From: a phage
Assembly (NCBI GenBank): GCA_018027755.1
Contig: GCA_018027755.1_4098.1
Length of the DNA stretch: 64,000 nucleotides
Reading direction: 5' to 3' (one strand)
In this document: positions 19,708-46,871 of the stretch, piece after piece
Position numbering within the stretch: position 1 is the first letter of the stretch
Layout: each line of letters starts with the position of its first letter
Translations under genes and position numbers: made by a program
Notes under the pieces: generated by a model
What the model was told of the DNA's origin: nothing
Seen by the model: only the letters and a program-made list of their open reading frames with translations
Databases searched by the model: none

Positions 19708-20856
19708 TTATTGTAAAAAGGACATATCTACTTCTGTATAACTAAGAATGTTTTGACCAGCAATTCCACCCATTACTACTATTGCATACCCACAATAATA
19801 TAATTTCCCAGTGTCCGTAAGTATAAGTGAACCAGAAGGTGTTCTTACCAAATTACACGAACTATTAAAAGAAGTATACGAAGGAGTATAGGAGTACTGA
19901 TTAATATTATTACCAACACCTAATTGACCACCCCTATTCGAACCAGATGCATAAAGTACTTCATCTGCTTTGACAATATGTGATGCCATGTTAGCAACAC
20001 ATGCATATACACCATATACCCCTGTACTCAATAATGTAGGAGTCTTGTATTGAATATCAGTACTAGTAGATGTTCCACCTGTGCCAAATTCATTACCATA
20101 TTGTGCTCCGTACTGCTTCCCACATGCGTACAAATTATTATCCGATTTGATAAAAAATGTACTCTGATAACTTACATCAAAATCTATAACATCCGAAGAA
20201 ATCATCGTTACCCCAGTAATCGAAGTTTGATTACCAGTACCCAACTGGTAGTAATAGTTAAAACCACAACCCCATAAAGTATTATCTTCTCGCAAATAAA
20301 TGTTACCAACAGCCTTTTTAACAGATGTTATAGTACTGACCTTCTTGAATGTATTAAATGAATCAATGTTAGTACCATCTCCAAAGGAGGATATGTTCGA
20401 TGCGTTATTAGCACCACAACAATATAATGTCCCATCCTTCAGTACTAAATTTACCTTCATATCATTAAAACTGCTCATGTACTCAATATCAGATACACTA
20501 ATACCACCTGATGTTATCCACGTAGTACAGTCCGTCCATAACGTCTTCCTATCAGTTACCCCAGTAAATGCCTTCGTGTTACCAGTGATAAACACTTTAC
20601 CAGTACCCTTTTCTTCATACAATTGACAATCACTACTGTTATCTTCCAATAAAACCCTCTGTACATTCTCTGCACAAAGAATAAATTTACTCGAAGCTAC
20701 TCCTGTACCAGTACCCCAATTCGTCGCAGAAGATGCATACAACTTGTGTGTTAGTGTATCATGCAAATACATAGAACCACTAGAATATATTTTAAAACGC
20801 CCTTCTTTCTCAGGTATAATATTCCCATAATCAAACATTCTAACAAAAGGTAACAT
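19708..20856 (-). CDS. MLPF-leader RCC1-like beta-propeller repeat protein (382 aa)
   Basis: Track ORF trimmed to MLPF ATG; leader MLPFVRMFDYGN. Confidence 0.7.
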   Translation of the reverse strand: MLPFVRMFDYGNIIPEKEGRFKIYSSGSMYLHDTLTHKLYASSATNWGTGTGVASSKFILCAENVQRVLLEDNSSDCQLYEEKGTGKVFITGNTKAFTGVTDRKTLWTDCTTWITSGGISVSDIEYMSSFNDMKVNLVLKDGTLYCCGANNASNISSFGDGTNIDSFNTFKKVSTITSVKKAVGNIYLREDNTLWGCGFNYYYQLGTGNQTSITGVTMISSDVIDFDVSYQSTFFIKSDNNLYACGKQYGAQYGNEFGTGGTSTSTDIQYKTPTLLSTGVYGVYACVANMASHIVKADEVLYASGSNRGGQLGVGNNINQYSYTPSYTSFNSSCNLVRTPSGSLILTDTGKLYYCGYAIVVMGGIAGQNILSYTEVDMSFLQ

Positions 20857-20958
20857 ATTTCCTCCTTTATTCATTATATCATATTTACCCCATAAACAAA
20901 ACCCTTGACAACCTTCCAGTACTGATGTACTATAGAAGGAATATAAGGAGAACTACAC
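20857..20958. promoter_or_regulatory. divergent promoter region
   Basis: Minus-strand cassette promoter/RBS for 19708..20856; plus-strand TTGACA-N17-TACTAT and TAAGGAG before ATG 20959. Confidence 0.5.
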
Positions 20959-21186
20959 ATGACAAATACTCTTAAGTACTACCTCAATACTCTAAATGAA
21001 CTAGAGTACGCGAAGTTTCTCGCGGATAGTTCGTGGCTAATTGAGCTAAAAACACATAACAGTACTGGATGTAACCTAATGCTGAACAATGCACTTGATA
21101 CCCTTGTAGTGAGTATTTTACACAGCAACATCTGCGGGGATAGAAACAAACAATTATCAAAAATCTTAGTACTGCTATCTATATGA
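20959..21186 (+). CDS. small protein, tandem family A
   Basis: ORF track; first of a run of 59-75-aa paralogs. Confidence 0.5.
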   Translation: MTNTLKYYLNTLNELEYAKFLADSSWLIELKTHNSTGCNLMLNNALDTLVVSILHSNICGDRNKQLSKILVLLSI

Positions 21187-21386
21187 ATATCGAACAGTAC
21201 TACATCGATGCACTACCAACAAAAGGTCTACGTGAAAGCCTACTGCATACACAAACTAATTTCAAACACCTCAAACGTAGCCCTAAACTCCTGAACTCGT
21301 ACAGGAATAATAACATAAGAAATGCTTTACAAGGGGTAGAATGTATGCAATACTATTACATCCTTACCCTATTAATCGAGTACTAA
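21183..21386 (+). CDS. small protein, tandem family A
   Basis: ORF track; ATGA overlap; C-terminal L-x-L-I-x-Y-like tail. Confidence 0.55.
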   Translation: MNIEQYYIDALPTKGLRESLLHTQTNFKHLKRSPKLLNSYRNNNIRNALQGVECMQYYYILTLLIEY

Positions 21387-21387
21387 T

Positions 21388-21597
21388 ATGAATACTGAAC
21401 ATAAAGAATTCTACACCAAATACCTTAGCAACGAAGAACAATTGTTTCTAAGGAGTGTATCACCTGTAAGTACCAATACTCAATTCGGTAGAGATTGCTT
21501 TAATAATTGTATACGTAGTACTCTAGAAGCAATCGAATGCAATAACAAAAATATTATGTACTCAGGTTTAATAGGACTAATATATTTCTATGAATAA
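21388..21597 (+). CDS. small protein, tandem family A
   Basis: ORF track; MNTEHKEFYTKYLS..; close paralog of 24340..24549. Confidence 0.6.
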   Translation: MNTEHKEFYTKYLSNEEQLFLRSVSPVSTNTQFGRDCFNNCIRSTLEAIECNNKNIMYSGLIGLIYFYE

Positions 21598-21784
21598 TCA
21601 TAAAGATTTCTATTGTAGTAAACTACCCAAACAAGAACAGCTATCATTCTCTTTAGCACCACCTATGAGAAAGGATAATCTGTATTATAATTACGATTTC
21701 AGGATGGTGACACGTTATGCAATAGAACATCAGTTCCCTGAAACTAAGTACCGCTCTATCCTGAACCTCATCTTTAAGTTCTAA
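21590..21784 (+). CDS. small protein, tandem family A
   Basis: ORF track; MNNHKDFY.. N-terminus. Confidence 0.55.
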   Translation: MNNHKDFYCSKLPKQEQLSFSLAPPMRKDNLYYNYDFRMVTRYAIEHQFPETKYRSILNLIFKF

Positions 21785-21836
21785 AAGGTACACCAGGGAC
21801 CGAGTACTTTAATATAGTAAGGCTAATTACATTATA

Positions 21837-22022
21837 ATGAATCATATAAGCTACTACTACCAACAACTATCCGACAGAGACAAGTACAGTCACAACTCCC
21901 ATGTGTGGTACTACAAACGCGGCAGTATAAGAGACAAACAACATTACTTCTGTATTTCTATTAAAGAAGCACTGACAACTAAGTACACGTACCGAGCAGT
22001 ACTTAAACTAATCTCTATTTGA
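21837..22022 (+). CDS. small protein, tandem family A
   Basis: ORF track; ..YTYRAVLKLISI tail. Confidence 0.55.
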   Translation: MNHISYYYQQLSDRDKYSHNSHVWYYKRGSIRDKQHYFCISIKEALTTKYTYRAVLKLISI

Positions 22023-22030
22023 GGTAATAT

Positions 22031-22216
22031 ATGAATACATTTGAGTACTATACCAATAAACTATCTATGCCTGAAAGATCTCATCTCTATGTGTGGAGAA
22101 ATGCGTATAAAAGCGGCAATAAACTTATACAAAGAAATTCCCTTACAGTGTGTACAAATTTAATTAAAGCAGAGTACCGCACATATATTGAAGTACTGAA
22201 GCTGATAGCAATCTAA
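22031..22216 (+). CDS. small protein, tandem family A
   Basis: ORF track; ..YIEVLKLIAI tail. Confidence 0.55.
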   Translation: MNTFEYYTNKLSMPERSHLYVWRNAYKSGNKLIQRNSLTVCTNLIKAEYRTYIEVLKLIAI

Positions 22217-22224
22217 GGTACTCT

Positions 22225-22404
22225 ATGCAAGAATTCTATATCTATAACCTCCAGCACAAAGATAGATACAACTATAATAAATTCCAAAGGTACTACACAG
22301 TCGGGAACAAAAGAGATAAAAAACGATACTTTCTATCATGTACAGTAGAAGCACAAAACGAAAAGTACACGTACAGAGAAGTACTGAAACTCATCTCTAT
22401 GTAA
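22225..22404 (+). CDS. small protein, tandem family A (59 aa)
   Basis: Below track cutoff; MQEFYIYNLQ..YTYREVLKLISM read from sequence. Confidence 0.5.
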   Translation: MQEFYIYNLQHKDRYNYNKFQRYYTVGNKRDKKRYFLSCTVEAQNEKYTYREVLKLISM

Positions 22405-22412
22405 GGAATAAT

Positions 22413-22592
22413 ATGCAAGAATACTATATAGAACACATAAGCATTAAAGACCGTTTCATGTACGACACCTTCGTGAAGTACTACAACCTGGCAACTAACA
22501 GTACTAAAAATATTAATCTCAATAGCTGCATTCATCACGCACTAACAAAAGATAATCCCTTCAGGGAAATCCTCGCACTAGCATCTGTATAA
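22413..22592 (+). CDS. small protein, tandem family A (59 aa)
   Basis: Track ORF 22338..22592 trimmed to MQEYYIEHIS.. Confidence 0.5.
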   Translation: MQEYYIEHISIKDRFMYDTFVKYYNLATNSTKNINLNSCIHHALTKDNPFREILALASV

Positions 22593-22602
22593 AGGAAACC
22601 AA

Positions 22603-23262
22603 ATGAAACTTAATGCACACAGCAAACAATACCTTAAGCACTTTAAGTACCTCAACAGTATTCAAGCAGAATCTTTTACACCAGCATATACGTATCACCC
22701 TAATGTACTAAAGAAACGAAATAAAAAGAAAAAATCCAGAAATGTTCTCGTATCTAAGAACCTCAAATCGTACTTGAAGAAAAATAATATAGCTCTTGCT
22801 TTTATTAATATCTATAATACTGATTTAAAAGTATTGAGTACTAATACCAGCACAAAAGCACTAAAGAATGCATCTATCTATATACACATGGATAATATCC
22901 CGTGCACTATAATTCTATCTTTCGGGAATGTATACTTCTTCGGGAATTGTAATAGCACCCATGATATCAGTACTGCACAATTCCAAATCGGAGATATGTA
23001 CTGCATGGGTTCAGAAAAAATACACGATAACATGCACTTCTTCCAAAAGCAACGTACTAACGAAACTGATACAGTACTGCAATTCCTCAAAGAATTACAA
23101 AACAAAGAATTATCCGAGGAAGAAGAATTCATGTACAGTACTGTAATCGATAATCCAGAACTCTATAAAAACGCGTACAAACTAACAAAACATGTACAGG
23201 AACTTATCAGTACTGATAAGAAATTTCATCACCTCATTACGTATATTTCAAACTATGTATAA
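22603..23262 (+). CDS. hypothetical protein (219 aa)
   Basis: ORF track; GGAAAC RBS; no similarity to flanking family A. Confidence 0.55.
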   Translation: MKLNAHSKQYLKHFKYLNSIQAESFTPAYTYHPNVLKKRNKKKKSRNVLVSKNLKSYLKKNNIALAFINIYNTDLKVLSTNTSTKALKNASIYIHMDNIPCTIILSFGNVYFFGNCNSTHDISTAQFQIGDMYCMGSEKIHDNMHFFQKQRTNETDTVLQFLKELQNKELSEEEEFMYSTVIDNPELYKNAYKLTKHVQELISTDKKFHHLITYISNYV

Positions 23263-23386
23263 AGAATACTAAAATTATCTATAATGAATTAATGAAAGAA
23301 TGTATTAAAGGTGCTATTAACCCTAAAGATACGTATGACTTGTACTATGCAGTACTAACCCTTGTTTTCACGAAATAACACATAAT

Positions 23387-23578
23387 ATGAATAACCACAA
23401 AGAATACTACATAGAGAAACTCCCAATGTATCTCCAACACCTTGTACCAACAGAACCATTGGGTATAGAAAAAAACTACGAAAAAGACTACTTCATTCAG
23501 TGCACTAAATCCTCGATATATATTGAAGACTATAATCGAGTACTGTATCACATCCTTTTACTAATATATAGGTACTAA
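23387..23578 (+). CDS. small protein, tandem family A
   Basis: ORF track; MNNHKEYYIEKLP...LLLIYRY. Confidence 0.6.
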   Translation: MNNHKEYYIEKLPMYLQHLVPTEPLGIEKNYEKDYFIQCTKSSIYIEDYNRVLYHILLLIYRY

Positions 23579-23579
23579 T

Positions 23580-23762
23580 ATGCACAAAGAATACTACACA
23601 CAATTTCTCCCCAGCATTTTTGAACACTACGCCAGATACAAAGTCCCTATGGATAACGATTTGGCAGTACTGGGATTCAATAACTGCATAGAACGAAGTA
23701 TAGAAAATAGTAGTAGTTATGACCAGCTATATAACACTATCCTACTTATATTCAGGTACTAA
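23580..23762 (+). CDS. small protein, tandem family A
   Basis: ORF track; MHKEYYTQFLP...ILLIFRY. Confidence 0.6.
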   Translation: MHKEYYTQFLPSIFEHYARYKVPMDNDLAVLGFNNCIERSIENSSSYDQLYNTILLIFRY

Positions 23763-23763
23763 T

Positions 23764-23952
23764 ATGCATAAAGAATACTACACAAAATATTTCCCAATGT
23801 ACCTCAGTACTAATCTATTAGATAAACCTCGCGGTATCAATGCACAAAACGATAAAGTGTACTTTACTATGTGCACTAAAGCATGTATACTAGATTTTGA
23901 CAGCTATCATCGAGTACTGTATCATACCCTGTACCTAGCTTTCGTATTCTAA
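23764..23952 (+). CDS. small protein, tandem family A
   Basis: Track ORF 23719..23952 trimmed to MHKEYYTKYFP.. Confidence 0.55.
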   Translation: MHKEYYTKYFPMYLSTNLLDKPRGINAQNDKVYFTMCTKACILDFDSYHRVLYHTLYLAFVF

Positions 23953-23961
23953 AAGAACAAT

Positions 23962-24147
23962 ATGCATAAAGAATTCTACTTAAGCCATCTCGATCTAAAC
24001 TCCCAAATGCTTATACCACTAATCCCAATAGATATCAAGGATAAGAAAAATACCGAACAATTCATTTACCATACACAGTGTGCGATCACCCCAAATTACA
24101 TTCCATATGAATTGTACTACATTATCGCCCTAATATATAGGTACTAA
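23962..24147 (+). CDS. small protein, tandem family A
   Basis: ORF track; MHKEFYLSHL...ALIYRY. Confidence 0.6.
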   Translation: MHKEFYLSHLDLNSQMLIPLIPIDIKDKKNTEQFIYHTQCAITPNYIPYELYYIIALIYRY

Positions 24148-24148
24148 T

Positions 24149-24334
24149 ATGCATAGAGAATACTACACACAATTTGTTAAAGGGAACTACAAACATGCCG
24201 TACCCAGAACCCCTTTAAATTCTCATGACCCAAGTACTATATTCTTGTTTAATGACGCAATACGTACAGTACTCAATACTAAAGATGAAGATGTGCAGTA
24301 CGTATTCTTACTATTACTTATATACAGACACTAA
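24149..24334 (+). CDS. small protein, tandem family A
   Basis: ORF track; MHREYYTQFV...LLLIYRH. Confidence 0.6.
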   Translation: MHREYYTQFVKGNYKHAVPRTPLNSHDPSTIFLFNDAIRTVLNTKDEDVQYVFLLLLIYRH

Positions 24335-24339
24335 CTAAT

Positions 24340-24549
24340 ATGAATAAAGAACATAAAGAATTCTACTCCAAATACATAAGCCCCTCAGAACAAATGTTTC
24401 TAAGAACTACTCCACCTTTAAGTACTAATACATTTTTCGGCAGAGTATGCTACAATAATTGTATTCAAATGACTTTAAACGCAAACGAAGATGGTAACAG
24501 TACTAACCTGTACTCAGGTATCATAGGTATACTATTCCTGTATGAATAA
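24340..24549 (+). CDS. small protein, tandem family A
   Basis: ORF track; paralog of 21388..21597. Confidence 0.6.
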   Translation: MNKEHKEFYSKYISPSEQMFLRTTPPLSTNTFFGRVCYNNCIQMTLNANEDGNSTNLYSGIIGILFLYE

Positions 24550-24730
24550 TTTCAAAGACTTCTATTTGAATACACTACCTACTGTACTTTCTCTAAGTGC
24601 TCAATGTAAAATCCCGCTGGATAATGCTTACGCCAGATATAGCTATTCCATAACTGTTAATCGATGTATAGAGAATCATTGCAGTACTAACCAGTACTAT
24701 AACATAATCCTACTTATATTCAGGTACTAA
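24542..24730 (+). CDS. small protein, tandem family A
   Basis: ORF track; MNNFKDFYLNTLP...ILLIFRY. Confidence 0.6.
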   Translation: MNNFKDFYLNTLPTVLSLSAQCKIPLDNAYARYSYSITVNRCIENHCSTNQYYNIILLIFRY

Positions 24731-24731
24731 T

Positions 24732-24914
24732 ATGAATAAAGAACATAAAGAATTCTATATACGAAAACTAACATTCGTCCCCGTAAGAATATATAAAGAA
24801 TGCGACCCAAGATTATACCTATGGCACTTCAATGAGTGCATAAAAGATTCTATATACCATAAGAACTATAAAGAACAATTGTGCTCAGTACTAACACTAG
24901 TACTATCATATTAA
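24732..24914 (+). CDS. small protein, tandem family A
   Basis: ORF track; MNKEHKEFYIRKL.. Confidence 0.6.
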   Translation: MNKEHKEFYIRKLTFVPVRIYKECDPRLYLWHFNECIKDSIYHKNYKEQLCSVLTLVLSY

Positions 24915-24929
24915 TTAATAGAGAATACT

Positions 24930-25121
24930 ATGTATAAAAACTTCTATATAAGTAAACTAAAAGAAAATGAACAAGTATGGATTAGATCTATAATTCCACT
25001 GGCATTTAATAGATATGCATTTAACAGATGTACCGAGATTGCTATAGACCCTTATAATATTAAAGAGAATGTACAGTATAATCAGTACTACTATATCTTA
25101 ATGCTTATATATAGAAAGTAA
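24930..25121 (+). CDS. small protein, tandem family A
   Basis: ORF track; MYKNFYISKL...LMLIYRK. Confidence 0.55.
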   Translation: MYKNFYISKLKENEQVWIRSIIPLAFNRYAFNRCTEIAIDPYNIKENVQYNQYYYILMLIYRK

Positions 25122-25532
25122 TTAAACACATAGAGACAGGGGAAGCTCCTAGTGAACAACCTTTATGTACAGGCGAATTGTTAAAATTCAGCCTGGACAA
25201 ATGCGATCACTAGGATTCTCCCCAGGCTAAACCCCGTAATCATAGGTAGTCATAAGTAATCATATATAAACATTTATATGAGCACCGTAGAATCACAGAA
25301 TGATTATATATGATTCAGTACTGATTAGTATAGACAAGATTGCTCAAGAATGCACGGAAATGTGTGTGAATGATTCAGTACTGATATCCCACTAAGTAGG
25401 CAGAGGAAGTCTGCCGTACTTTGTAGTTTCCAAGCTCCTTTTCCATTTTGCAAATTACATCAAATGTAATCAAAAGTAATCACACAATGATTAGTACTGA
25501 ATTATTACTTTCACCTTAATTACAATTACCCT

Positions 25533-25550
25533 TTTACCCTTCGGGGTAAA
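25533..25550 (+). other. stem-loop with TTCG tetraloop
   Basis: TTTACCC-TTCG-GGGTAAA perfect inverted repeat in ORF-free hub. Confidence 0.35.
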
Positions 25551-26169
25551 ATTCCATTACCCCTTGAGGCTCCAGCAAAAAGTTGGTTAGTACTCCATCC
25601 TAAATCTCGATCCTAAAAATTTTGGAGTACCTATGAAATAAAAGTTGGATCTTCGAAAGTTGAAATTTACGTTGGGACGTTTATGATTTGTGGGATATAA
25701 TGATGTTTGTAGTCGGGTAGTTCTCAAGAATATCAGTACTGAATGATGAAAGAAAGCTATTGACTTTATGATTCAGTACTGTATAATGTTTTACATAGAG
25801 AGATGAGTTGCCGCAAACAATTCATTCACTCTACTTCCTGTCGTGAGACAGTACAGAAAGATAGTTCCTCCTATGGGTGGTACATCTTTTAGAACCTCTT
25901 TTTTCGTAATATGAACAGTACTGATATTAACAGAATGGTGTCAGTACTGATTTTAATTTAATGCATTATGCCACCAGCACAAGCTGGTGGATTCCCTCTA
26001 ACAGTATTCAGTACTACATGATGGTCTTCATCCTCCTAGGGTAACATAGTGAGGGCTATGATGGCAGTACTGAATACTCCCTTTCAAAAGATAGATCTAT
26101 GGTATAGTACTGACGGATTTTGGGCGTAGTTACCCTGGATGGATTTTGGGCGTAGATATGTCTAGCCCT

Positions 26170-26320
26170 CCAGAAGTCTGGAAGTAAAGATGGCTATCCA
26201 TCTAGACGGCTAAACGGCTAGATTTCTGGATGGCTGGATGGCTGGATGGCTGGATGGCTAGACGTTTGGACGGCTAAACGGCTAGATGGTTACACGTCTG
26301 GAAGTATAGACGGCTAAATC
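26170..26320. repeat. iteron-like tandem/symmetric repeat block
   Basis: CTGGATGG x4 in tandem (26226-26258) flanked by repeated GACGGCTAAACGGCTAGA and TCTGGAAGTA-AGA-GGCTA units. Confidence 0.6.
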
Positions 26321-26499
26321 AAAATTTTATTTTGTTTTTTCCAATAGTTCCCCTACCGCGTGGGGATAGTTTCCCCGCAGTATCTGGAGTTAGATTTTTC
26401 TGAATCTGGAATCATTATCTTATAAACTGGGGGCAATGTCAACGACCTGGTCGGATATTTTTAAAAATTTTTTCAGTACTGAATTTTGGGCGTAACTAT

Positions 26500-26514
26500 G
26501 CACCCGGTGGGCTT
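26500..26514 (+). repeat. motif-2 copy (GCACCCGGTGGGyT)
   Basis: Reverse complement of motif-1 core; preceded by GAATTTTGGGCGTAA. Confidence 0.5.
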
Positions 26515-26661
26515 GAGTCTTTCTCGACTTGATGGAACTATTATACAGTACTGAAAAAATAAAGCAATACCCTGGAAGCAAAAAAATTTTAATTAATTTG
26601 CTTGCTATCCTGGGCCGGACTATGGTACTATATTTCAGTACTGAGAAAGTGCGTTTGCCTG

Positions 26662-26681
26662 CTAGGGTGCGGGAGTGTATC
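26662..26681 (+). repeat. motif-1 copy (..AGGGTGCGGGAGTGTATC)
   Basis: Conserved 20-25-nt element, one of 7 copies. Confidence 0.5.
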
Positions 26682-26715
26682 CTTTTTTTATATCTTGAAT
26701 TTTGGGCGTAATTCC

Positions 26716-26730
26716 GCACCCCCTGGGGTT
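26716..26730 (+). repeat. motif-2 copy
   Basis: GCACCCCCTGGGGTT; about 50 nt downstream of motif-1 copy. Confidence 0.45.
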
Positions 26731-26936
26731 TCCGCTTTCTCGCGTCTATGTAGTAATTATACGCTTTTTCAGGATCAAGTCAATACCTAAAAACAAAATA
26801 ATTGAAAATAATTTAACGCGTTTAAACGGCCCGTAAAGCCCTGGAATGATTGGAATGGTGCAAATGTATAGCTTAGGTGTATTAATGCGTTAGAATGCGT
26901 CTGAGGCCGTTTTACGGGGTATAGGGATGATTTAGT

Positions 26937-27031
26937 GGATTGATTCAGTACTGAATAATAGTACTCCTATATAGAAAGATAGTTCCCCTGGATTGATTCA
27001 GTACTGAATAATAGTTCCCCTATATAGAAAG
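26937..27031 (+). repeat. about 42-bp direct repeat x2 containing palindrome TCAGTACTGA
   Basis: GGATTGATTCAGTACTGAATAATAGT.CC.TATATAGAAAG at 26937 and 26990, just upstream of first early promoter. Confidence 0.6.
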
Positions 27032-27063
27032 AAAACTATTTTAAAAGTATTTGTAGAAAGTAC

Positions 27064-27091
27064 TTGCACAGTACTGAAAAAAGCGTATAAT
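27064..27091 (+). promoter_or_regulatory. early promoter (TTGCAC-N16-TATAAT)
   Basis: -35 27064-27069, -10 27086-27091; followed by GTTTTACATC and GGGAA-CAC-TTCCC hairpin. Confidence 0.6.
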
Positions 27092-27145
27092 GTTTTACAT
27101 CGAGAGCGGGAACACTTCCCTACTCACTTTTAAGAGATTAAAACG

Positions 27146-27508
27146 ATGGCGACTCAAATCACTAAAATCATTGCTAACCTGGTTAACTTCCGCGACGATA
27201 TGAAAGATCTTCCGGCGGCAACGGTTAAAACTCACATTGACGCATACCGCGAACTGATTAAAATGCTGCCGCTTAAGCGTGAACAATACGCCGCCACCGT
27301 GATGCTTGATGCGATGATCCATAAGATGATCGCCAGTGATTTGACGATGGTTTATCAGTATATGGGCGAAAATTTCGCGGTGTATAGTAAACCAGTACCA
27401 GGAATGGAAAGTACAGAAGTATTACACGGTTTAAATTTAAAACAAGATGCATGGGATAATATGCCTCGTTTCCTGGTATGGGCTGACAGTGGCAAAATTT
27501 ACGAATAA
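27146..27508 (+). CDS. hypothetical protein (120 aa)
   Basis: ORF track; promoter + 5' hairpin upstream; E. coli-like codons. Confidence 0.65.
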   Translation: MATQITKIIANLVNFRDDMKDLPAATVKTHIDAYRELIKMLPLKREQYAATVMLDAMIHKMIASDLTMVYQYMGENFAVYSKPVPGMESTEVLHGLNLKQDAWDNMPRFLVWADSGKIYE

Positions 27509-27522
27509 GTTTTAGAAAGTAC

Positions 27523-27550
27523 TTGCAAACTAAGTTTAAAAGCGTATAAT
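27523..27550 (+). promoter_or_regulatory. early promoter (TTGCAA-N16-TATAAT)
   Basis: -35 27523-27528, -10 27545-27550. Confidence 0.6.
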
Positions 27551-27564
27551 GTTTTACATCAGGT

Positions 27565-27579
27565 GGGGAATAGTTCCCC
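27565..27579 (+). promoter_or_regulatory. 5'-proximal leader hairpin
   Basis: GGGGAA-TAG-TTCCCC immediately after predicted start site, before AGAGGA RBS. Confidence 0.5.
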
Positions 27580-27600
27580 ACTATATAAGAGGATTAAAAA

Positions 27601-27840
27601 ATGGCTAAATCAAAAATGTTCTTAGGTCACAAAAACAAAACTCATTGGAATGTAAGCCTTTGGATTAATAACGATGAGTCATTGTACCGGTTGGCCCTGG
27701 ACTTTATTGCCGCCAATACTAATCGCAATGATGCGGCCCGTCATATGATGTTATTTTTAGAACAGACTGGACAAGATAAAACACCGGACGGATTCAAATA
27801 TAGCACTACTGCGATCCGTGCGGCGATGGTTGGAATGTAA
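27601..27840 (+). CDS. hypothetical protein (79 aa), paralog of 29645..29884
   Basis: ORF track; shares GHKNKTHWNVSLWINNDESLYR and TPDGFKYSTTAIRAAMVGM with 29645..29884. Confidence 0.7.
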   Translation: MAKSKMFLGHKNKTHWNVSLWINNDESLYRLALDFIAANTNRNDAARHMMLFLEQTGQDKTPDGFKYSTTAIRAAMVGM

Positions 27841-27926
27841 TAGAATTTATTTAAAGTACTATCATTTTTTTGCGATAGTACTTTATAATAGTGTTTTATT
27901 CATACACCAACGATAAGGGCAACAGC

Positions 27927-28193
27927 ATGAATATTAAGTATTTTGCGACGCGTGAACAAGCTCGGATCGCCGCTCGCCAGGACGGGGCAACGTTTAAAGA
28001 TATGGGCGTACAATCGGAACGTGGTAAACGTTGGGCCATTGTAAAGCGTAGTACCGCCAGATCATTACAGTACTGGTTAGCGGCCTTAAAAAGTCCCGAT
28101 AGTGTATCGCGTCGAGTGGTAGAAATAAAGCTCGACCGAAAGGGCAACCGCGTGACCGTGTACCGTACTAAAAAGATTGCAGTACTTGAATAA
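27927..28193 (+). CDS. hypothetical protein (88 aa), paralog of 40612..41016
   Basis: Track ORF trimmed to ATG 27927; KYFATREQARIAAR and DRKGNRVTVY shared with 40612..41016. Confidence 0.6.
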   Translation: MNIKYFATREQARIAARQDGATFKDMGVQSERGKRWAIVKRSTARSLQYWLAALKSPDSVSRRVVEIKLDRKGNRVTVYRTKKIAVLE

Positions 28194-28200
28194 AAAGTAC

Positions 28201-28228
28201 TTGCAAACTATGTTTAATGGCGTATAAT
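28201..28228 (+). promoter_or_regulatory. early promoter (TTGCAA-N16-TATAAT)
   Basis: -35 28201-28206, -10 28223-28228. Confidence 0.6.
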
Positions 28229-28242
28229 GTTTTACATCGAGA

Positions 28243-28259
28243 GCGGGAACACTTCCCGC
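28243..28259 (+). promoter_or_regulatory. 5'-proximal leader hairpin
   Basis: GCGGGAA-CAC-TTCCCGC. Confidence 0.5.
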
Positions 28260-28281
28260 CTATAACCTGGAGTAATAAAAA

Positions 28282-28512
28282 ATGACTAATATGTATATGA
28301 CTGAAGTTAAAACCGTAAAAGATACTACCACGAATAAAACTACTTACTTACAGCGGATCTGCGGTGTATGGCAACGTATCAGCAAATCAAAGTACTTTAA
28401 ATTAACATCATATGCAAATCGTTCGGATTCATTCAGTACTGAAATAAAAGGTAATAAAGTACACCAATACGGCACTTATTATTATTACAGCCTGGACGCG
28501 ATTGCAGTATAA
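28282..28512 (+). CDS. hypothetical protein (76 aa)
   Basis: ORF track; GGAG RBS. Confidence 0.6.
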   Translation: MTNMYMTEVKTVKDTTTNKTTYLQRICGVWQRISKSKYFKLTSYANRSDSFSTEIKGNKVHQYGTYYYYSLDAIAV

Positions 28513-28545
28513 TCATATTTTTTGAAAAATTTACAATTGCCGGTA

Positions 28546-28574
28546 TTGACTTATTTTGTCAGTACTGGCATAAT
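28546..28574 (+). promoter_or_regulatory. promoter (TTGACT-N17-CATAAT) driving an ORF-less unit
   Basis: -35 28546-28551, -10 28569-28574; downstream about 150 nt carries motif-1 and motif-2 and ends in a T-run. Confidence 0.45.
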
Positions 28575-28597
28575 GTATTCATTGGCAGATAAGCCGT

Positions 28598-28622
28598 AGC
28601 CCATAGGGTGCGGGAGTGTATC
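28598..28622 (+). repeat. motif-1 copy
   Basis: AGCCCATAGGGTGCGGGAGTGTATC. Confidence 0.5.
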
Positions 28623-28666
28623 TATAGAAAAATTAGTTTAGTATAGTTACAATTGTGCACCCGGTG

Positions 28667-28680
28667 GGTTAGCTGTTGTC
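28667..28680 (+). repeat. motif-2 copy
   Basis: GCACCCGGTGGGTT. Confidence 0.5.
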
Positions 28681-28764
28681 ATGGGGTATATTATGCCAGT
28701 ACTTGATAATGCTGTCAATACTTTTTTTTAATATTCAGTACTGAAAACTATTTTTAAAAAGTAC

Positions 28765-28792
28765 TTGTAAACTATGTTTAAAGGCGTATAAT
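28765..28792 (+). promoter_or_regulatory. upstream promoter P1 (TTGTAA-N16-TATAAT)
   Basis: First of two tandem promoters before 28943. Confidence 0.5.
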
Positions 28793-28801
28793 GTTTTACA
28801 T

Positions 28802-28881
28802 CAGGACGGGGAACGAAATAAGTAACTTCCCGTTAAGTAGCCCAGGAGTAAGGCACACGAAAAACTCCCCTGATAAAATAG
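28802..28881 (+). ncRNA. candidate about 80-nt leader/small RNA element, copy 1
   Basis: CAGGACGGGGAACGAAATAAG...CTCCCCTGATAAAATAG between promoters P1 and P2; second copy at 39430..39508 before an unrelated gene. Confidence 0.35.
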
Positions 28882-28882
28882 T

Positions 28883-28910
28883 TTGACAATAGAAAGTAAA
28901 AGCGTATAAT
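28883..28910 (+). promoter_or_regulatory. promoter P2 (TTGACA-N16-TATAAT)
   Basis: -35 28883-28888, -10 28905-28910. Confidence 0.6.
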
Positions 28911-28942
28911 ACTTACATCAACTACTGAATGAGGGTTACAAA

Positions 28943-29554
28943 ATGAAAACTATCACTACTACTACTTTTGTTATGGCTTTTTCTGAACTGAACGCAGAAC
29001 AAAAAACGGCGGCTATCGAACTGGTTCGGGATCGTGAGCGTTCATGTGAGGATAATTTCTTTGCTGAGGGCGTTATCGAGTACTATAAAGAAACAGTACT
29101 ACCAGAATACGGCATAGATGAAGCTGAATTGCAATACAGTGGTTTTTGGTCGCAAGGTGACGGTGCATCAATCAGTACTAACCACGTTGACGCTGAGAAG
29201 TTTTTACGCAAGGTTAAGGCGTTAACGAAATATCGTTCAATCCGTCACCTGTTGAACGAGGATGATTTAGAAATGAGTGTAGAACGTTTCCAATCACGCT
29301 ACGCACACGAAAACACGGTAGGCGGTTGCGTTGATACTCGCTACACTGATTTAACTGTAAAACAGGCGGCATTGGCTGAGGATCTGGAAAACTTACTGAC
29401 TGATGCGATCCGTGAATTATCTCGTAAGTTGTACCGTGATTTAGAGAATGCATATGAGGATCAATTCACTACTGAAAACATCGTAGCACTGATTGAGGGT
29501 AACGAATATCAATTCAATGTGATTGATGGCGTAGTAGAATCAATCGAATATTAA
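28943..29554 (+). CDS. hypothetical protein (203 aa), acidic
   Basis: ORF track; GAGGG RBS; only a weak ISTNH motif reminiscent of ArdA, not called. Confidence 0.65.
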   Translation: MKTITTTTFVMAFSELNAEQKTAAIELVRDRERSCEDNFFAEGVIEYYKETVLPEYGIDEAELQYSGFWSQGDGASISTNHVDAEKFLRKVKALTKYRSIRHLLNEDDLEMSVERFQSRYAHENTVGGCVDTRYTDLTVKQAALAEDLENLLTDAIRELSRKLYRDLENAYEDQFTTENIVALIEGNEYQFNVIDGVVESIEY

Positions 29555-29566
29555 TTTAAAAAGTAC

Positions 29567-29594
29567 TTGCATACTAAGTTTAAAAGCGTATAAT
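29567..29594 (+). promoter_or_regulatory. early promoter (TTGCAT-N16-TATAAT)
   Basis: -35 29567-29572, -10 29589-29594. Confidence 0.6.
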
Positions 29595-29607
29595 ACTTTA
29601 TATCGAG

Positions 29608-29626
29608 GCGGGGAGTGGTTCCCCGC
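29608..29626 (+). promoter_or_regulatory. 5'-proximal leader hairpin
   Basis: GCGGGGA-GTGGT-TCCCCGC. Confidence 0.5.
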
Positions 29627-29644
29627 TCAAACGAGGATTTAAAA

Positions 29645-29884
29645 ATGGCTAGTACTAAAACTTATAACGGACACAAAAACAAAACTCATTGGAATGTAAG
29701 CCTTTGGATCAATAACGATGAATCATTATACCGGATTGCTCAAAATTGCATCGCACAAAGTAGAACTAAAGATATTGCTGCGGAATGTATGTACCGCAGA
29801 TTAAAAGCCAACGGTACTACTACAACGCCGGACGGCTTTAAGTATAGCACTACTGCGATCCGTGCTGCAATGGTTGGAATGTAA
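29645..29884 (+). CDS. hypothetical protein (79 aa), paralog of 27601..27840
   Basis: Track ORF trimmed to ATG 29645 after GAGGA RBS. Confidence 0.7.
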   Translation: MASTKTYNGHKNKTHWNVSLWINNDESLYRIAQNCIAQSRTKDIAAECMYRRLKANGTTTTPDGFKYSTTAIRAAMVGM

Positions 29885-29941
29885 TATTCAGTACTGAGAT
29901 AATGGCGGGTAATAGTTCCCGCCTTTACTGAGGGTTATCTA

Positions 29942-30202
29942 ATGAGTAAAGTAATTAGCTATACAGCACTAAGCAAGACATTATCTATTAGCCAGTGCAC
30001 CGATGGTTATTGGCTATTTGATGAAACGCGTGGCATGAATTTAGCCATGCGTGCAAAAACTGCTGAGGCGGCGTATCTTGAAGCATTGGAATACTACCAG
30101 GAACGTTTAAAGGAAGTAGAAGAAGATTATAAAAGCCTCAAAGCGAAAGTAGATCATTTCGTCGGTCAATTCATCGAGGAAGACGACGACAAACAATATT
30201 GA
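29942..30202 (+). CDS. hypothetical protein (86 aa)
   Basis: ORF track; GAGGG RBS; leader hairpin upstream. Confidence 0.6.
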   Translation: MSKVISYTALSKTLSISQCTDGYWLFDETRGMNLAMRAKTAEAAYLEALEYYQERLKEVEEDYKSLKAKVDHFVGQFIEEDDDKQY

Positions 30203-30210
30203 AAAAGTAC

Positions 30211-30238
30211 TTGCAATTAGTTTTCAGTACTGTATAAT
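30211..30238 (+). promoter_or_regulatory. early promoter (TTGCAA-N16-TATAAT, TG-extended)
   Basis: -35 30211-30216, -10 30233-30238. Confidence 0.6.
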
Positions 30239-30250
30239 GGTTTACATCAA

Positions 30251-30270
30251 AGGGAGAAATGGTTCTCCCT
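30251..30270 (+). promoter_or_regulatory. 5'-proximal leader hairpin
   Basis: AGGGAGAA-ATGG-TTCTCCCT. Confidence 0.5.
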
Positions 30271-30288
30271 GGTAATGAGGAAAATAAA

Positions 30289-30510
30289 ATGGCTAATATC
30301 ACTACTCTTTCCCAACTGGAAGCACTGGTGAAATCTATGCGGGAACATGCCGACAAAATCGGCGTACAAGATCCAGCCGTTTGCTTCTGCGACGAATTGA
30401 ATGATGATACCCTGGTAATAGCAGAAGTCCAGGACGTTTCTAACTATTCCTCGCGTTACACTGGCGGCGTAGCAAATAAAGGCGACTTCTGTTTATACCT
30501 TACAAAATAA
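30289..30510 (+). CDS. hypothetical protein (73 aa)
   Basis: Track ORF trimmed to ATG 30289 after GAGGAAAA. Confidence 0.6.
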   Translation: MANITTLSQLEALVKSMREHADKIGVQDPAVCFCDELNDDTLVIAEVQDVSNYSSRYTGGVANKGDFCLYLTK

Positions 30511-30586
30511 CAACGCGGGGAGATAATAACTCCCCGTTACTTTTTCAGTACTGAATCATTTAATAGACGGATCTCGGCACCCGGTG

Positions 30587-30600
30587 GGTTAGTGACTGTT
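30587..30600 (+). repeat. motif-2 copy
   Basis: GCACCCGGTGGGTT. Confidence 0.5.
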
Positions 30601-30678
30601 TCGTCTTGATGTAGTAATTATGCCAGTACTGGATGCACTTGTCAACAACTATTTTTCAAATACTTTTTATTAAAATAC

Positions 30679-30706
30679 TTGCAATTAGTTTTTAAACGCG
30701 TATAAT
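30679..30706 (+). promoter_or_regulatory. early promoter (TTGCAA-N16-TATAAT)
   Basis: -35 30679-30684, -10 30701-30706. Confidence 0.6.
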
Positions 30707-30716
30707 GTTTTGCATA

Positions 30717-30733
30717 GGGGGAGCGGTTCCCCC
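30717..30733 (+). promoter_or_regulatory. 5'-proximal leader hairpin
   Basis: GGGGGA-GCGGT-TCCCCC; identical leader reused at 31039. Confidence 0.5.
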
Positions 30734-30754
30734 TGGTAACTAAGGAATAATAAA

Positions 30755-30991
30755 ATGCTTGAACAAATCAAATCAACGACTTCGAATGTAACGGGAACGG
30801 TAGCACACTTTACTAGTGATGAATCGCGGGGCGTACCCTATTGTGCTGTACATGTAAACACTGATGGCAACTACTGGTTTACTGTTTACGGATCATATTC
30901 CTTTGGACGACCAGGGCATCAAAAAATTCTGGATAAAGTACAGCCAACGGGTAAAAATATCACTGCTGAAATGTTTTATAAAAAATCATAA
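30755..30991 (+). CDS. hypothetical protein (78 aa)
   Basis: ORF track; AAGGAA RBS. Confidence 0.6.
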   Translation: MLEQIKSTTSNVTGTVAHFTSDESRGVPYCAVHVNTDGNYWFTVYGSYSFGRPGHQKILDKVQPTGKNITAEMFYKKS

Positions 30992-30996
30992 AGTAC

Positions 30997-31024
30997 TTGA
31001 TAATAGTTTTTAGTACTGTATAAT
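30997..31024 (+). promoter_or_regulatory. early promoter (TTGATA-N16-TATAAT, TG-extended)
   Basis: -35 30997-31002, -10 31019-31024. Confidence 0.55.
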
Positions 31025-31038
31025 ATTTTACATCGCAA

Positions 31039-31055
31039 GGGGGAGCGGTTCCCCC
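31039..31055 (+). promoter_or_regulatory. 5'-proximal leader hairpin
   Basis: GGGGGA-GCGGT-TCCCCC. Confidence 0.5.
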
Positions 31056-31075
31056 TGGTAACTAAGGATAATCAA

Positions 31076-31375
31076 ATGAAAATTGCAATCATCGCCCTGG
31101 CTTTATCTGTTTCCTCTTTCGCTGTTAATGCGTCATTAGATGTAAGTAGTGAAAAATTCATTCAGTGCACTGTTGCAATGACCGATGAAAGTACTGGCGA
31201 GATTGTATTAAAGGATTTAGAGATCAAGCCGGAAGCATTTAAAAACGGCCCGTTCCATGAAGAAGACGAAAACGGTAGTACAACAATTTATTATGATGCC
31301 AGTACTAAACGCGGTTCGGTCACTGTAATGGATACTGAGAAAGTAACTCATACTGGCGTTATTAATTGCCGTTGA
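31076..31375 (+). CDS. small secreted/periplasmic protein (signal-peptide-like N-terminus)
   Basis: ORF track; MKIAIIALALSVSSFAVNAS.. hydrophobic leader. Confidence 0.6.
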   Translation: MKIAIIALALSVSSFAVNASLDVSSEKFIQCTVAMTDESTGEIVLKDLEIKPEAFKNGPFHEEDENGSTTIYYDASTKRGSVTVMDTEKVTHTGVINCR

Positions 31376-31396
31376 TAGATACTACGGGGTAACATC

Positions 31397-31627
31397 ATGA
31401 CTAAGCGAATTGTTTTACTTAACGAAAGCAGTACTACACAACTACTTAACGCCGTGCATTATGATATTGAAACGAGCGTTAATCTTATCAGTACTGTCGT
31501 ACTGTTGGACACTGGAAAGGTCGCCAATGATAAAGCGATTGCAGGTATACTAACGGATCTTGAGCCTGGTAGCAGTGCACCAATAACGTTAAATGGTAAA
31601 GTGTTTAATATTTTACTCACTGATTAA
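31397..31627 (+). CDS. hypothetical protein (76 aa)
   Basis: ORF track; terminator immediately downstream. Confidence 0.6.
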   Translation: MTKRIVLLNESSTTQLLNAVHYDIETSVNLISTVVLLDTGKVANDKAIAGILTDLEPGSSAPITLNGKVFNILLTD

Positions 31628-31633
31628 GTACAT

Positions 31634-31663
31634 AGCCCACCTGGTGGGCTTTTTTTGTTTTTG
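31634..31663 (+). terminator. intrinsic terminator
   Basis: AGCCCACC-TGGTGGGCT hairpin followed by TTTTTTTGTTTTT. Confidence 0.7.
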
Positions 31664-32344: not shown

Positions 32345-32365
32345 CAATTAAAGTACTGAATCACT

Positions 32366-32772: not shown

Positions 32773-32842
32773 AAAATAGTTTGACAATAGTTTTAAGTAC
32801 TGGCATAATACATACATCAACTACTGAATAGGAATCAAAACA

Positions 32843-46621: not shown

Positions 46622-46871
46622 TGCGTAAAGGGATCTAGTACTGATTCAGAAAAAAGTCAAGGCGTTTTTAAAATTATGCGTTAAAAAAATGCATAGGTAA
46701 TCCCTTGACTTTTTTGAAATAAAAGGGATTGGACTATGGCAAAATGCGTAGGGGGCTAAAGGGCGGGTAACCTTAGCGACTTCGATAAAGGGGTATTACG
46801 AATAAAATGTTATTGATTTTTTATACGAATCGTATATTATAGGATTGATATTATTTTTTAATGGAGTCCCT

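Follow-up and report, generated by a model that had tools for sequence, protein, structure and literature searches.

The 64,000-nucleotide stretch of phage DNA analyzed here (the window, whose positions serve as coordinates throughout) contains at 25122-27145 a region that is likely to be the left boundary of a long direct terminal repeat (DTR) together with the non-coding leader that heads this repeat, forming a set of packaging and regulatory elements. The 2-kb query matched 44 phage records at 87-96% identity, all of them ~350-kb Asteriusvirus jumbo coliphages (PBECO4, 121Q, phAPEC6, G17, fEgEco12 and others), and the window itself comes from an Asteriusvirus (PBECO4/121Q-type) jumbo coliphage. 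A model reading of the letters alone (the original prediction) had described the region as a repeat-rich hub lacking open reading frames (ORFs), a candidate origin, packaging site or master regulatory region. Every element that it listed is present at or near the place it gave, with the corrections of count and geometry described below. Our results support the packaging and regulatory roles and not a host-type origin; a phage-specific origin is improbable.

Six sister records (fEgEco12, vB_Ec-M-J, ELP-22, CRJP21, E9.1 and BF17) share their first nucleotide, starting AGTAGGCAGAGG/AGTAGGCAGAGGAAGTCTGCC..., and are 100% identical over at least their first 28 nt to the window from position 25395. 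Published DTR lengths of these phages are ~20-21 kb. The ends of fEgEco12 were determined by PhageTerm and confirmed by restriction digests, giving a DTR of 20,993 bp (PMC13070987); the DTR of Sharanji is 20,668 bp (PMC11895373) and that of vB_Ec-M-J 21,525 bp. Positions 46734-46773 are identical to the final 40 nt of the DTR in both fEgEco12 and vB_Ec-M-J, and the right boundaries of both map to 46773. From the record starts at 25395 and these matching DTR ends, the DTR is therefore predicted to span 25395-46773 (21,379 bp, ~21.4 kb), with 273 bp of the region outside it and 1,751 bp of ORF-free leader inside. Homology to unique-region DNA of relatives extends past both boundaries, and the 273-bp pre-terminus spacer has its homolog in the DNA that immediately precedes the right-hand DTR copy in fEgEco12. 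Relatives vary most at 25300-25380. The arrangement of the window is that of a concatemer or collapsed form, in which the unique end, one DTR copy and the unique start follow one another. The left virion end of the six sister phages thus maps inside the region, in support of the packaging option of the original prediction. The terminus positions are already present in public records, although several sister-phage records open at arbitrary points instead of the mapped terminus.

At nine boundaries from four genera or groups (Asteriusvirus, Alcyoneusvirus, Mimasvirus and the Munch group), CTA^ stands directly outside the packaged DNA in every case (five left, four right), on the strand that supplies the virion 5′ end (Table 1). 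The right boundaries of Asteriusvirus, CBB, fENko-Kae01 and Muenster have GCTA^AG in common. The left and right sites of a genome are in inverted orientation, and a comparison of left with right boundary sequences by eye revealed no similarity beyond CTA^. T5's own DTR boundary reads GTGGATC^TAAAAAC, without CTA^, and the motif therefore appears specific to the RaK2-like clade. During packaging, judging by homology to the mapped termini, a cut or nick at CCCACTA^AGTAGG (25394/25395) would give the left virion end, and its inverted partner GTCGCTA^AGGTTAC (bottom strand, 46774/46773) the right end. Because the sites are inverted and both read C-R-C-T-A^ on the strand giving the virion 5′ end, two 3′-OH ends would point into the repeat. 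In the classical T7/T3 scheme, staggered nicks plus strand displacement duplicate the terminal repeat; the geometry here would be of that type, with strand-displacement synthesis from staggered nicks duplicating the repeat.

As the original prediction had claimed, there is no credible ORF at 25122-27145; candidates were checked and rejected. The longest, a 99-amino-acid (aa) minus-strand ORF with a GTG start (26420-26719) that is annotated in some records, is frame-broken with stops in EJP2 despite 95-100% DNA identity. A 29-codon ATG ORF following promoter P1 appears cut to ~20 codons in most relatives, a shortening judged by eye in the alignment and confirmed by a script only for the window and E9.1. 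Several sister GenBank records (ELP-22, E9.1, SD-2_S15 and others among those compared) carry 4-12 'hypothetical protein' coding sequences across the homolog of 25395-27145, and others carry none; such mis-annotated leader coding sequences, like the arbitrary record openings, are correctable.

The leader has counterparts well beyond the genus. An ORF-free zone of 1-2 kb lies at the same place in RaK2, GAP32, CBB, Munch, fENko, Yen9-04, EJP2 and 121Q, and its order is conserved: a terminal hairpin, a GTACTCCA...AAATTTTGGAGTAC element, P1, a Chi hairpin, TTTTGGGYGTA boxes, an array slot, CCAWTAGYTCCCCT.CCGCG, a P3/P4 promoter module, decayed cassettes, and the first-gene promoter with its stem-loop. 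Order and positions are kept across genera sharing little DNA identity. A stem beginning at nt 1-2 occurs in three different sequence versions (three of five lineages), those of Asteriusvirus, Munch/fENko (TATCTTCT..AGAAGATA) and EJP2. The most conserved piece is the GTACTCCA..TGGAGTAC element, which is 97% identical in EJP2 (island 25580-25620) as against 30-55% in its flanks; it lies at ~+90 to +135 in Munch, fENko, CBB and GAP32 and is duplicated in EJP2, where the left half of the leader is mosaic relative to the window. One additional GTAATCA(A/n)AA copy is present in vB_Ec-M-J. The fixed-position elements near the end (the terminal hairpin, GTACTCCA..TGGAGTAC and the slot of the 8-bp array) are probably a platform for terminase or end-processing proteins. 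Overall, the region holds 22 direct-repeat families and 56 inverted pairs, and the TTCG-tetraloop hairpin (25534-25549), the Chi octamer (25983-25990) and the repeated boxes (26115, 26141, 26481 and 26697) of the original prediction were all confirmed.

The window carries 13 copies of Chi where 0.56 would be expected, and none of 100 shuffles reached 13. Eleven copies lie in the DTR (25971-45411), compared with 0.18 in Markov simulations, an enrichment of ~50-fold. By the established orientation rule for RecBCD, the bottom-strand copies at 25971 and 32412 are active for entry at the left end, and seven consecutive top-strand copies at 36976-45404 for entry at the right end. The copies differ in sequence context, some being coding and some intergenic, and are therefore independent sites. 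The DTR of Munch (L023, 1-21296) holds 13 Chi and the 24 kb after it 2, and the corresponding counts for Muenster (L029, 1-20030) are 8 and 0; both show the same polarity, with a minus-oriented copy at ~6.5-7 kb. The pattern, a run of 7-9 top-strand copies in the right half with bottom-strand copies at ~+0.5 kb and ~+7 kb, is thus found in three genera with differing DTR gene contents.

In the leader, Chi (GCTGGTGG, 25983-25990) and an inverted CCACCAGC at 25971-25978 form a perfect 8-bp stem. This Chi hairpin is kept in all aligned Asteriusvirus except EJP2 and lies at +484 in Munch; it is absent from the EJP2, RaK2/Muenster and GAP32/CBB leaders. Its loop (25979-25982) reads ACAA in some isolates and TTGT in others (fEgEco12, G17 and 121Q were compared) while the stem is always perfect, a flip that would indicate palindrome inversion by template switching or cruciform resolution. 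Located at +577, the hairpin Chi would be the first met by RecBCD from the left end and, with the oriented DTR series, would stop degradation and load RecA. RecA loading would in turn let the two terminal repeats recombine, yielding circles or concatemers, as proposed for phage P1.

An inward sigma-70 promoter lies at +261 to +366 from the end in five lineages (Asteriusvirus, EJP2, Munch, GAP32 and RaK2). In the window, this promoter, P1, is at +366, and the first-gene promoter is at +1670 from the left end; a TCAGTACTG palindrome fills the P1 spacer, and weaker overlapping candidates occur nearby at 25660-25701. The region had been predicted to separate a gene family ('family A') from the first early promoter; instead, the first early-type promoter lies inside it, at 25760-25787. 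The proposed master-regulatory role is partly supported, by sigma-70 promoters at 25760, 26783 and 27064, weaker ones at 26602 (+) and 26442 (-), and palindromes over spacers and -35 elements. The leftward P2 arrangement recurs, by eye, in Munch (L014, ~880-925). P3 and P4 flank an invariant inverted repeat, GGGTGCGG (26665-26672) and CCGCACCC (26714-26721), together with box 4 (26697-26711). Their architecture is conserved in Asteriusvirus, Munch, CBB, GAP32, Yen9-04 and RaK2, and the module aligns across five genera with a lineage-specific central box, either a TTTTGG box or a Fur-box-like palindrome.

About 27 near-identical early cassettes, AAAGTACTTGCAA-N16-TATAAT-GTTTTACAT / GTTTTACATC-GGGGAGAA..TTCTCCCC stem-loop, precede small DTR ORFs (27545-45882, plus strand), and the family has members in the region at 25760 (+), 26783 (-) and 27064 (+). 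The first-gene promoter site (27043-27141) is 77-88% (~80%) identical to promoter regions of ~130-155-kb coliphages, a likeness which suggests that the promoter cassettes may be mobile. Compared by eye with intact cassettes, two 44-nt direct repeats look like internally deleted promoter/stem-loop cassettes (CAGTACTGAATAATAGTTCCCC), and their copy number and length differ between isolates. They had been predicted as a 42-bp repeat at 26937-27031; the duplication is real, whereas the copies are 44 nt long, 95% identical and span 26936-27032. After ejection, host sigma-70 RNA polymerase would start at P1 and the first-gene promoter and open the DTR early program, as the consensus matches and RNA sequencing of the related PA5oct suggest. 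In PA5oct, the DTR genes are early and host-polymerase-dependent, and two abundant non-coding RNAs (ncRNAs) map in the DTR (PMC7318152).

The window contains 280 copies of the palindrome AGTACT, which falls in all three codon phases, against ~22 expected from composition, an estimate made without a shuffle test on the hexamer; the next-commonest 6-bp palindrome occurs 79 times. Its density is 3.2 per kb in ORFs (~10-fold enriched), 9.3 per kb in the non-coding DNA of the window and 9.7 per kb in the region, and we accordingly rejected the idea that the palindromes are specific to the hub. The gene blocks 46774-51500 and 54000-61500 have no copies, and the DTR of Munch and Muenster has 2-4 times the AGTACT density of the unique DNA after it. 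This pattern points to DNA-level selection for a binding or modification site. The original prediction had listed AGTACT palindromes and Chi correctly but recognized neither the genome-wide AGTACT and DTR-wide Chi patterns nor the DTR boundary, and its count of at least 15 CAGTACTGA-type palindromes falls to 13 under a strict definition, with 19 AGTACT cores. CAGTACTG reaches 6.4 per kb in the region as against 1.5 in DTR genes and 0.5 elsewhere, and 8 of the 16 copies of TCAGTACTGA are inside the region. Within the leader, 10-bp palindromes overlap promoter spacers or -35 elements; since this is a typical operator position, they are probably operators for a phage regulator. AGTACT is also built into many early-cassette promoters. 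No relevant phage literature on the CAGTACTG/AGTACT motif was found in a search.

The array slot of the window holds ~19 units of 8 bp with the consensus CTRGAYGG. Four tandem CTGGATGG copies (26226-26257) are accompanied by GACGGCTAAACGGCTAGA at 26205 and 26269 and TCTGGAAGTA at 26177 and 26297; these flanks, predicted to be symmetric, are present but are direct copies within the array, not mirror images. Isolates differ in the number of CTGGATGG core copies (~1 to 4), and in G17 a larger deletion has removed 32 bp of the array. Similar 8-bp units fill the slot in Asteriusvirus, Mimasvirus and Eneladusvirus, and CTRGAYGG-type arrays were found in CBB, GAP32 and Yersinia, Serratia and Erwinia relatives; in RaK2 and Munch, the slot contains Fur-box-like GAGAATGATAATGATTCTCATT repeats. 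The array also occurs in unrelated groups, namely T5-like Aeromonas phages AhSzq-1 and AhSzw-1, Providencia phage PR1, Vibrio harveyi phages and T7-like PGT2. Across these phages it is mostly found near a DTR boundary or the end of a record. In PR1 it is ~800 bp within the 10,461-bp DTR, counted from the boundary; in PGT2 it occupies nt 43-115 of the record; and in many Vibrio harveyi phages it lies near record starts or ~8 kb from record ends. The 'iteron-like' reading of the original prediction did not hold, given the 8-bp units, their free copy-number variation and the array at the left end of the PGT2 record.

Around the array, four exact TTTTGGGCGTA cores in the boxes are the only exact copies in the whole window. 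GAATTTTGGGTGTA takes the place of the GGATTTTGGGCGTAG boxes in GAP32, CBB and Munch, and CCATTAGCTCCCCTTCCGCG follows the array in GAP32, CBB and Yen9-04. GAATTTTGGGCGTAA occurs at 26481 and 26697, and minus-strand copies related to box module 3 lie at ~35679, 42624 and 45377. A box module (TATAAT/TTTTGG)-ATACAC-TTATGCACCC-NNN-GGGCT was also seen at ~35679, 39330, 42624 and 45377 (minus-strand reading), at the ends of gene groups. These modules are directed against the genes, often with Chi and the following promoter as neighbors; a role as antisense promoters or as binding sites for a protein is conceivable. Fur-box-like palindrome arrays (TGAGAAT-N-ATTCTCA, AAATGAGAATCATTATCATT) were found in RaK2 (L015, 2620-2760, 2910 and 3150), Munch (L014, 690-800 and 1030-1060), T5 (L027, 370-545) and AhSzq-1 (L024, 1440-1465), filling the array slot and the center of the convergent module in some jumbo phages and in T5-like phages; the window itself has none.

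In T5, the left terminal repeat has at its right end Repeat Region 3, 1.2 kb of untranslated DNA of which 270 bp extend past the repeat boundary; it has been proposed to act as an injection stop signal (iss) (Davison, bioRxiv 10.1101/866236; also Heusterspreute 1987; Wang 2005). From the shared boundary position, array and box types, the leader therefore appears to be the jumbo-phage counterpart of this region. Both are untranslated over at least 1 kb, straddle the boundary of a long DTR with ~270 bp outside the repeat, and are dense in direct repeats, inverted repeats and palindromes that keep their order from one relative to another. A CTAGAYGG 8-bp array lies there in T5-like Aeromonas and Providencia phages (AhSzq-1, AhSzw-1 and PR1), Vibrio T5-like phages share the array, and T5 has Fur-box-like AAATGAGAATCATT boxes of the type filling the RaK2 and Munch slot. 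By contrast, the region described here lies at the promoter-proximal repeat boundary and contains the physical left end, early promoters into the repeat and the Chi hairpin; the paired DnaA boxes (~8, at fixed positions) and DRD repeats (TGTGCAAATCCGACA) of T5 were not found in it.

If the region were itself a T5-type stop signal, the right end would enter first, the 21-kb DTR (~6% of the genome) would be transferred, and transfer would pause at the region until DTR early proteins restarted it. The position of the T5 region, with 270 bp outside the boundary as against 273 bp here, would fit, as would its repeat and palindrome density, the same 8-bp array in T5-like phages, and the T5 AAATGAGAATCATTATCATT boxes of the type found in the RaK2 and Munch slot; Chi sites protecting the right end are far commoner than those protecting the left (7-9 against 1-2), which would suit a right end exposed first. 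We nevertheless consider this explanation unlikely. All ~55 DTR genes read left to right, which would make entry promoter-last, and T5 ORF011-017 read toward Repeat Region 3, whereas the neighboring genes here read away from the region. The region lacks the DnaA-box pairs by which the T5 region is defined. The array also sits 43 bp into the T7-like PGT2 record, a place where a stop signal would have little purpose, and the iss function is unproven in T5 itself.

The region might also be a cluster of ncRNA genes, with a P1 RNA of ~150 nt ending at the 25916-25949 hairpin and overlapping antisense RNAs from P3 and P4 that act on host or phage targets. Promoters conserved in five lineages do face ORF-free DNA, terminator-like hairpins are present at 25916-25949 and 26664-26683, and the two abundant PA5oct ncRNAs come from a DTR. 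However, an Rfam scan of 24500-27700 with E-values up to 10 returned only noise (best 15-19 bits against thresholds of 40-90, E at least 3), and ARAGORN detected no tRNA or tmRNA in the window. The long P3-P4 inverted repeat is conserved but sequence-invariant, with no compensatory changes, so that covariation is uninformative for RNA structure; only a 3-bp promoter-leader stem covaries in the module. The cut site, the array and the boxes are better read as DNA sites. The ncRNA explanation, which is not exclusive of a packaging and regulatory leader, seems to us improbable.

We regard a phage replication origin, in which the array would provide initiator iterons beside an A+T-rich stretch and convergent transcription from P1/P2 and P3/P4 would activate initiation, as distinctly improbable. 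The order of elements (the array, a 22-bp A+T-rich stretch with an integration host factor (IHF) consensus at 26317, then G+C-rich hairpins), the two convergent promoter pairs and a cumulative GC-skew minimum of the window at ~25 kb are compatible with such an origin. Yet this minimum coincides with a change of gene block and is weak, non-specific evidence, and the array units of 8 bp are out of helical phase, with CTGGATGG at ~1-4 copies among isolates. DnaA-like boxes are at background (1.5 compared with 1.9 per kb), the three one-mismatch sites in the region all falling at 25122-25365, and no 40-mer reaches 90% A+T. Neither DnaA boxes, GATC clusters, Escherichia coli Fur 19-mers nor A+T-rich 40-mers are enriched in the region, and the features of an iteron-type origin (phased iterons of ~17-22 bp, DnaA boxes and an A+T-rich unwinding element) were not found there. 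Furthermore, sister genera fill the array slot with unrelated types of box, the same array is found at DTR ends of unrelated phages, and T5 origins are reported near mid-genome. The origin option of the original prediction is thus not supported. Finally, mostly non-functional spacer, made of decayed promoter/stem-loop cassettes and slippage-prone repeats tolerated beside a genome end, would agree with the truncated look of the 44-nt repeats and several ATAGTTCCCC fragments, with the copy-number variation of the array, GTAATCA and 44-nt repeats and with the EJP2 mosaic, but is very improbable in view of the element order and positions conserved across genera with little DNA identity, the 97-100% identity islands in diverged backgrounds and the 1-2-kb non-coding zone kept in every relative despite near-total coding density elsewhere.

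Several points weigh against a packaging and regulatory leader as proposed here. The mapped termini are those of sister phages and not of the window's own phage, and the cut in EJP2 was placed by similarity to Munch and GAP32. The vB_Ec-M-J record puts the right boundary one T off the CTA^ register, and a symmetric enzyme making double-strand cuts would explain the boundary geometry equally well. With ~0.8 kb between it and the cut, the array is more distant than would be expected of a classical terminase site, and families differ in how it is oriented with respect to the boundary. We infer functions for the array, boxes and palindromes, and we know of no protein that binds the array, the palindromes or the GTACTCCA element. 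A literature search found no Asteriusvirus transcriptome. A G-rich coding strand could give part of the plus-strand Chi bias (~2:1 estimated from GC skew as against 27:5 observed); it cannot explain the ~50-fold enrichment or the restriction to the DTR.

The left end and concatemer junction of T7 and T3 reportedly carry a terminal repeat, short-repeat arrays and host promoters A1-A3 before the first gene. The leader resembles them in being a non-coding left-end sequence with short-repeat arrays beside the terminal repeat and strong host-type promoters facing inward before the first gene; in both systems, one repeat copy per concatemer junction needs duplication, and T7-like PGT2 has the same array type. 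The two differ in the size of the repeat (21 kb here, 160-230 bp in T7/T3) and in the terminase, which is T4 gp17-like (PMC8407769). No phage RNA-polymerase promoters are involved here. The closest precedent for dense Chi clusters in DNA that is terminally repeated in virions is phage P1, whose terminal redundancy is Chi-rich and for which RecBCD/RecA recombination of the repeats after injection has been proposed (Subramaniam & Smith; bioRxiv 10.1101/2021.07.08.451572; PMC12315714). P1, however, is packaged by headful from pac and has variable ends, whereas here the ends are fixed, Chi is confined to a defined DTR, the series is polarized toward the right end, and a palindromic Chi hairpin lies 0.5-0.6 kb inside the left end. 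T4-type phages are said to carry mobile early-promoter/stem-loop cassettes termed PeSL. The cassettes of the window are PeSL-like: consensus -35 and -10 elements 16-18 bp apart stand ahead of a stem-loop and a ribosome-binding site. As with PeSLs, a sigma-70 early promoter and short stem-loop precede many small early genes, and fragments and near-copies are shared with unrelated coliphages. Their sequence family, AAAGTACTTGCAA-N16-TATAATGTTTTACAT-stem-loop, is different.

The DTR is flanked by three tandem paralog families. Six tandem minus-strand ORFs of ~375-415 aa occupy window positions 6000-21000; according to the Munch paper, an RCC1-like 'DNA condensation' gene is tandemly repeated within the right-most ~20 kb of the Munch genome, and the six ORFs may correspond to these repeats. 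About 20 plus-strand ORFs of ~60 aa (family A of the original prediction) follow at 21000-25121, with negative GC skew despite their strand, and a series of ~70-aa plus-strand ORFs stands directly after the DTR (46845-51000). The right DTR boundary (46773/46774) sits in a 250-bp non-coding gap (46622-46872) and reads ...GGGCGGGTAACCT^TAGCGAC. Just inside it, TTAC.G.CCTTTAG....CATAGTCCAA is conserved in CBB and fENko-Kae01, and after it a sigma-70-like promoter, TTGATT-N17-TATTAT (by eye), serves the first unique-region genes.

Table 1. Features of the leader region and of the terminal-repeat boundaries (a caret marks the predicted cut, with outside DNA to its left; P2 and the cut sites are candidates)
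Feature	Position	Strand	Remarks
Pre-terminus spacer	25122..25394	.	last 273 bp of unique region; upstream of shared record-start base
Spacer inverted repeat, imperfect	25134-25155 / 25207-25228		
Spacer GTAATCA repeats, 10-bp period	25236-25275		
Two TGATTCAGTACTGAT palindromes in spacer	25311-25325, 25371-25385		
Left DTR boundary, cut/nick site CCCACTA^AGTAGG	25388..25400	+	cut between 25394/25395; 25395 = virion nt 1
Terminal hairpin AGTA-GGCAGA-GGAAG-TCTGCC-g-TACT	25395..25420	.	starts at nt 1; DNA fold -6.9 kcal/mol, z -4.4
GTAATCA(A/n)AA 10-bp repeats inside end	25459..25482	.	mirror the outside repeats at 25236-25275
TTACCC-TTCG-GGGTAA hairpin	25534..25549	.	-6.4 kcal/mol, z -3.0
GTACTCCA ... 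TCCTAAAAATTTTGGAGTAC element, inverted repeat with 25-nt loop	25590..25630	.	+196 to +236 from end; fold z -4.2
P1, sigma-70 promoter TTGACT-16-TATAAT, then early signature GTTTTACATAGAGAG	25760..25787	+	score 11/12
Hairpin of two CAGTACTG copies, then ATTTTAATTT	25916..25949	+	terminator-like
Chi hairpin CCACCAGC-ACAA-GCTGGTGG	25971..25990	.	+577 from left end; -9.9 kcal/mol, z -5.4
Two GGATTTTGGGCGTAG boxes just upstream of array	26115, 26141 (26115..26155)	+	
Array, ~19 units x 8 bp (CTGGATGG / CTAGACGG / CTAAACGG / CTGGAAGT), consensus CTRGAYGG	26170..26318	+	+775 to +923 from end
A+T-rich stretch with IHF consensus (AATCAAAATTTTA), then CCAATAGTTCCCCTACCGCGTGGGGATAGTTTCCCC	26317..26385	.	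sequence match
P2, promoter-like TTGACA-17-GATAAT	26414..26442	-	leftward toward array; score 11/12
Box module 3, GAATTTTGGGCGTAA-CTATGCACCCGGTGGGC...TATTATACAGTACTGA	26481..26553	+	91% identical to a site in the CBB DTR
Convergent pair P3/P4, region	26602..26783	.	
P3	26602-26631	+	weak in window; 10-11/12 in other genera
P4, TTGACT-16-TATAAT with TACATAGA signature	26783 to 26756	-	score 11/12
Two 44-nt direct repeats	26936-26979, 26989-27032	+	95% identical, 53-bp spacing
First DTR gene promoter TTGCAC-16-TATAAT	27064-27091	+	region to 27145
Leader stem-loop GGGAA-CAC-TTCCC	27108-27120	+	then ribosome-binding region; gene start 27146
Right DTR boundary GGGTAACCT^TAGCGAC	46767..46780	-	bottom strand GTCGCTA^AGGTTAC
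Left boundary, Asteriusvirus			CCCACTA^AGTAGG
Left boundary, RaK2 (Muenster nt 1)			GCCACTA^AGTCCG
Left boundary, GAP32 (CBB nt 1)			TCCACTA^TATCTG
Left boundary, fENko-Kae01 / Munch			TCCGCTA^TATCTT
Left boundary, EJP2			TGCACTA^TATCTT; cut placed by similarity, not a mapped terminus
Right boundary, Asteriusvirus		bottom	GTCGCTA^AGGTTA
Right boundary, CBB		bottom	CTCGCTA^AGCGTT
Right boundary, fENko-Kae01		bottom	GTGGCTA^AGGCAT
Right boundary, Muenster		bottom	AGTGCTA^AGCCTA

To our knowledge, and within the literature searched, the leader architecture, CTA^ at both boundaries, the cross-family array with its T5 link and the oriented Chi series have not been described before. This locus bears on how long exact terminal repeats are cut and duplicated and on what the T5 repeat region does, and it offers a compact, conserved candidate cis set: CTA^ at both boundaries, a hairpin at nt 1, an invariant element ~100-240 bp inside the end (~+200 here) and an array common to four phage groups. 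The concentration of correctly oriented Chi in the terminal repeats of a virulent jumbo phage implies reliance on host RecBCD and RecA right after entry, which bears on host range and phage therapy. As a speculation that we advance with little confidence, RaK2-like phages may mark both ends of a ~20-kb repeat by a strand-specific C-R-C-T-A^, inverted and with 3′-OH ends inward, as the signature of staggered nicking and strand displacement; in addition, the neighboring CTRGAYGG array, interchangeable with Fur-box-like arrays, would be a cis 'DTR-boundary module' horizontally shared among T7-like, T5-like, Vibrio and jumbo phages. If this is true, the 'injection stop signal' of T5 would be recast as an end-processing element.

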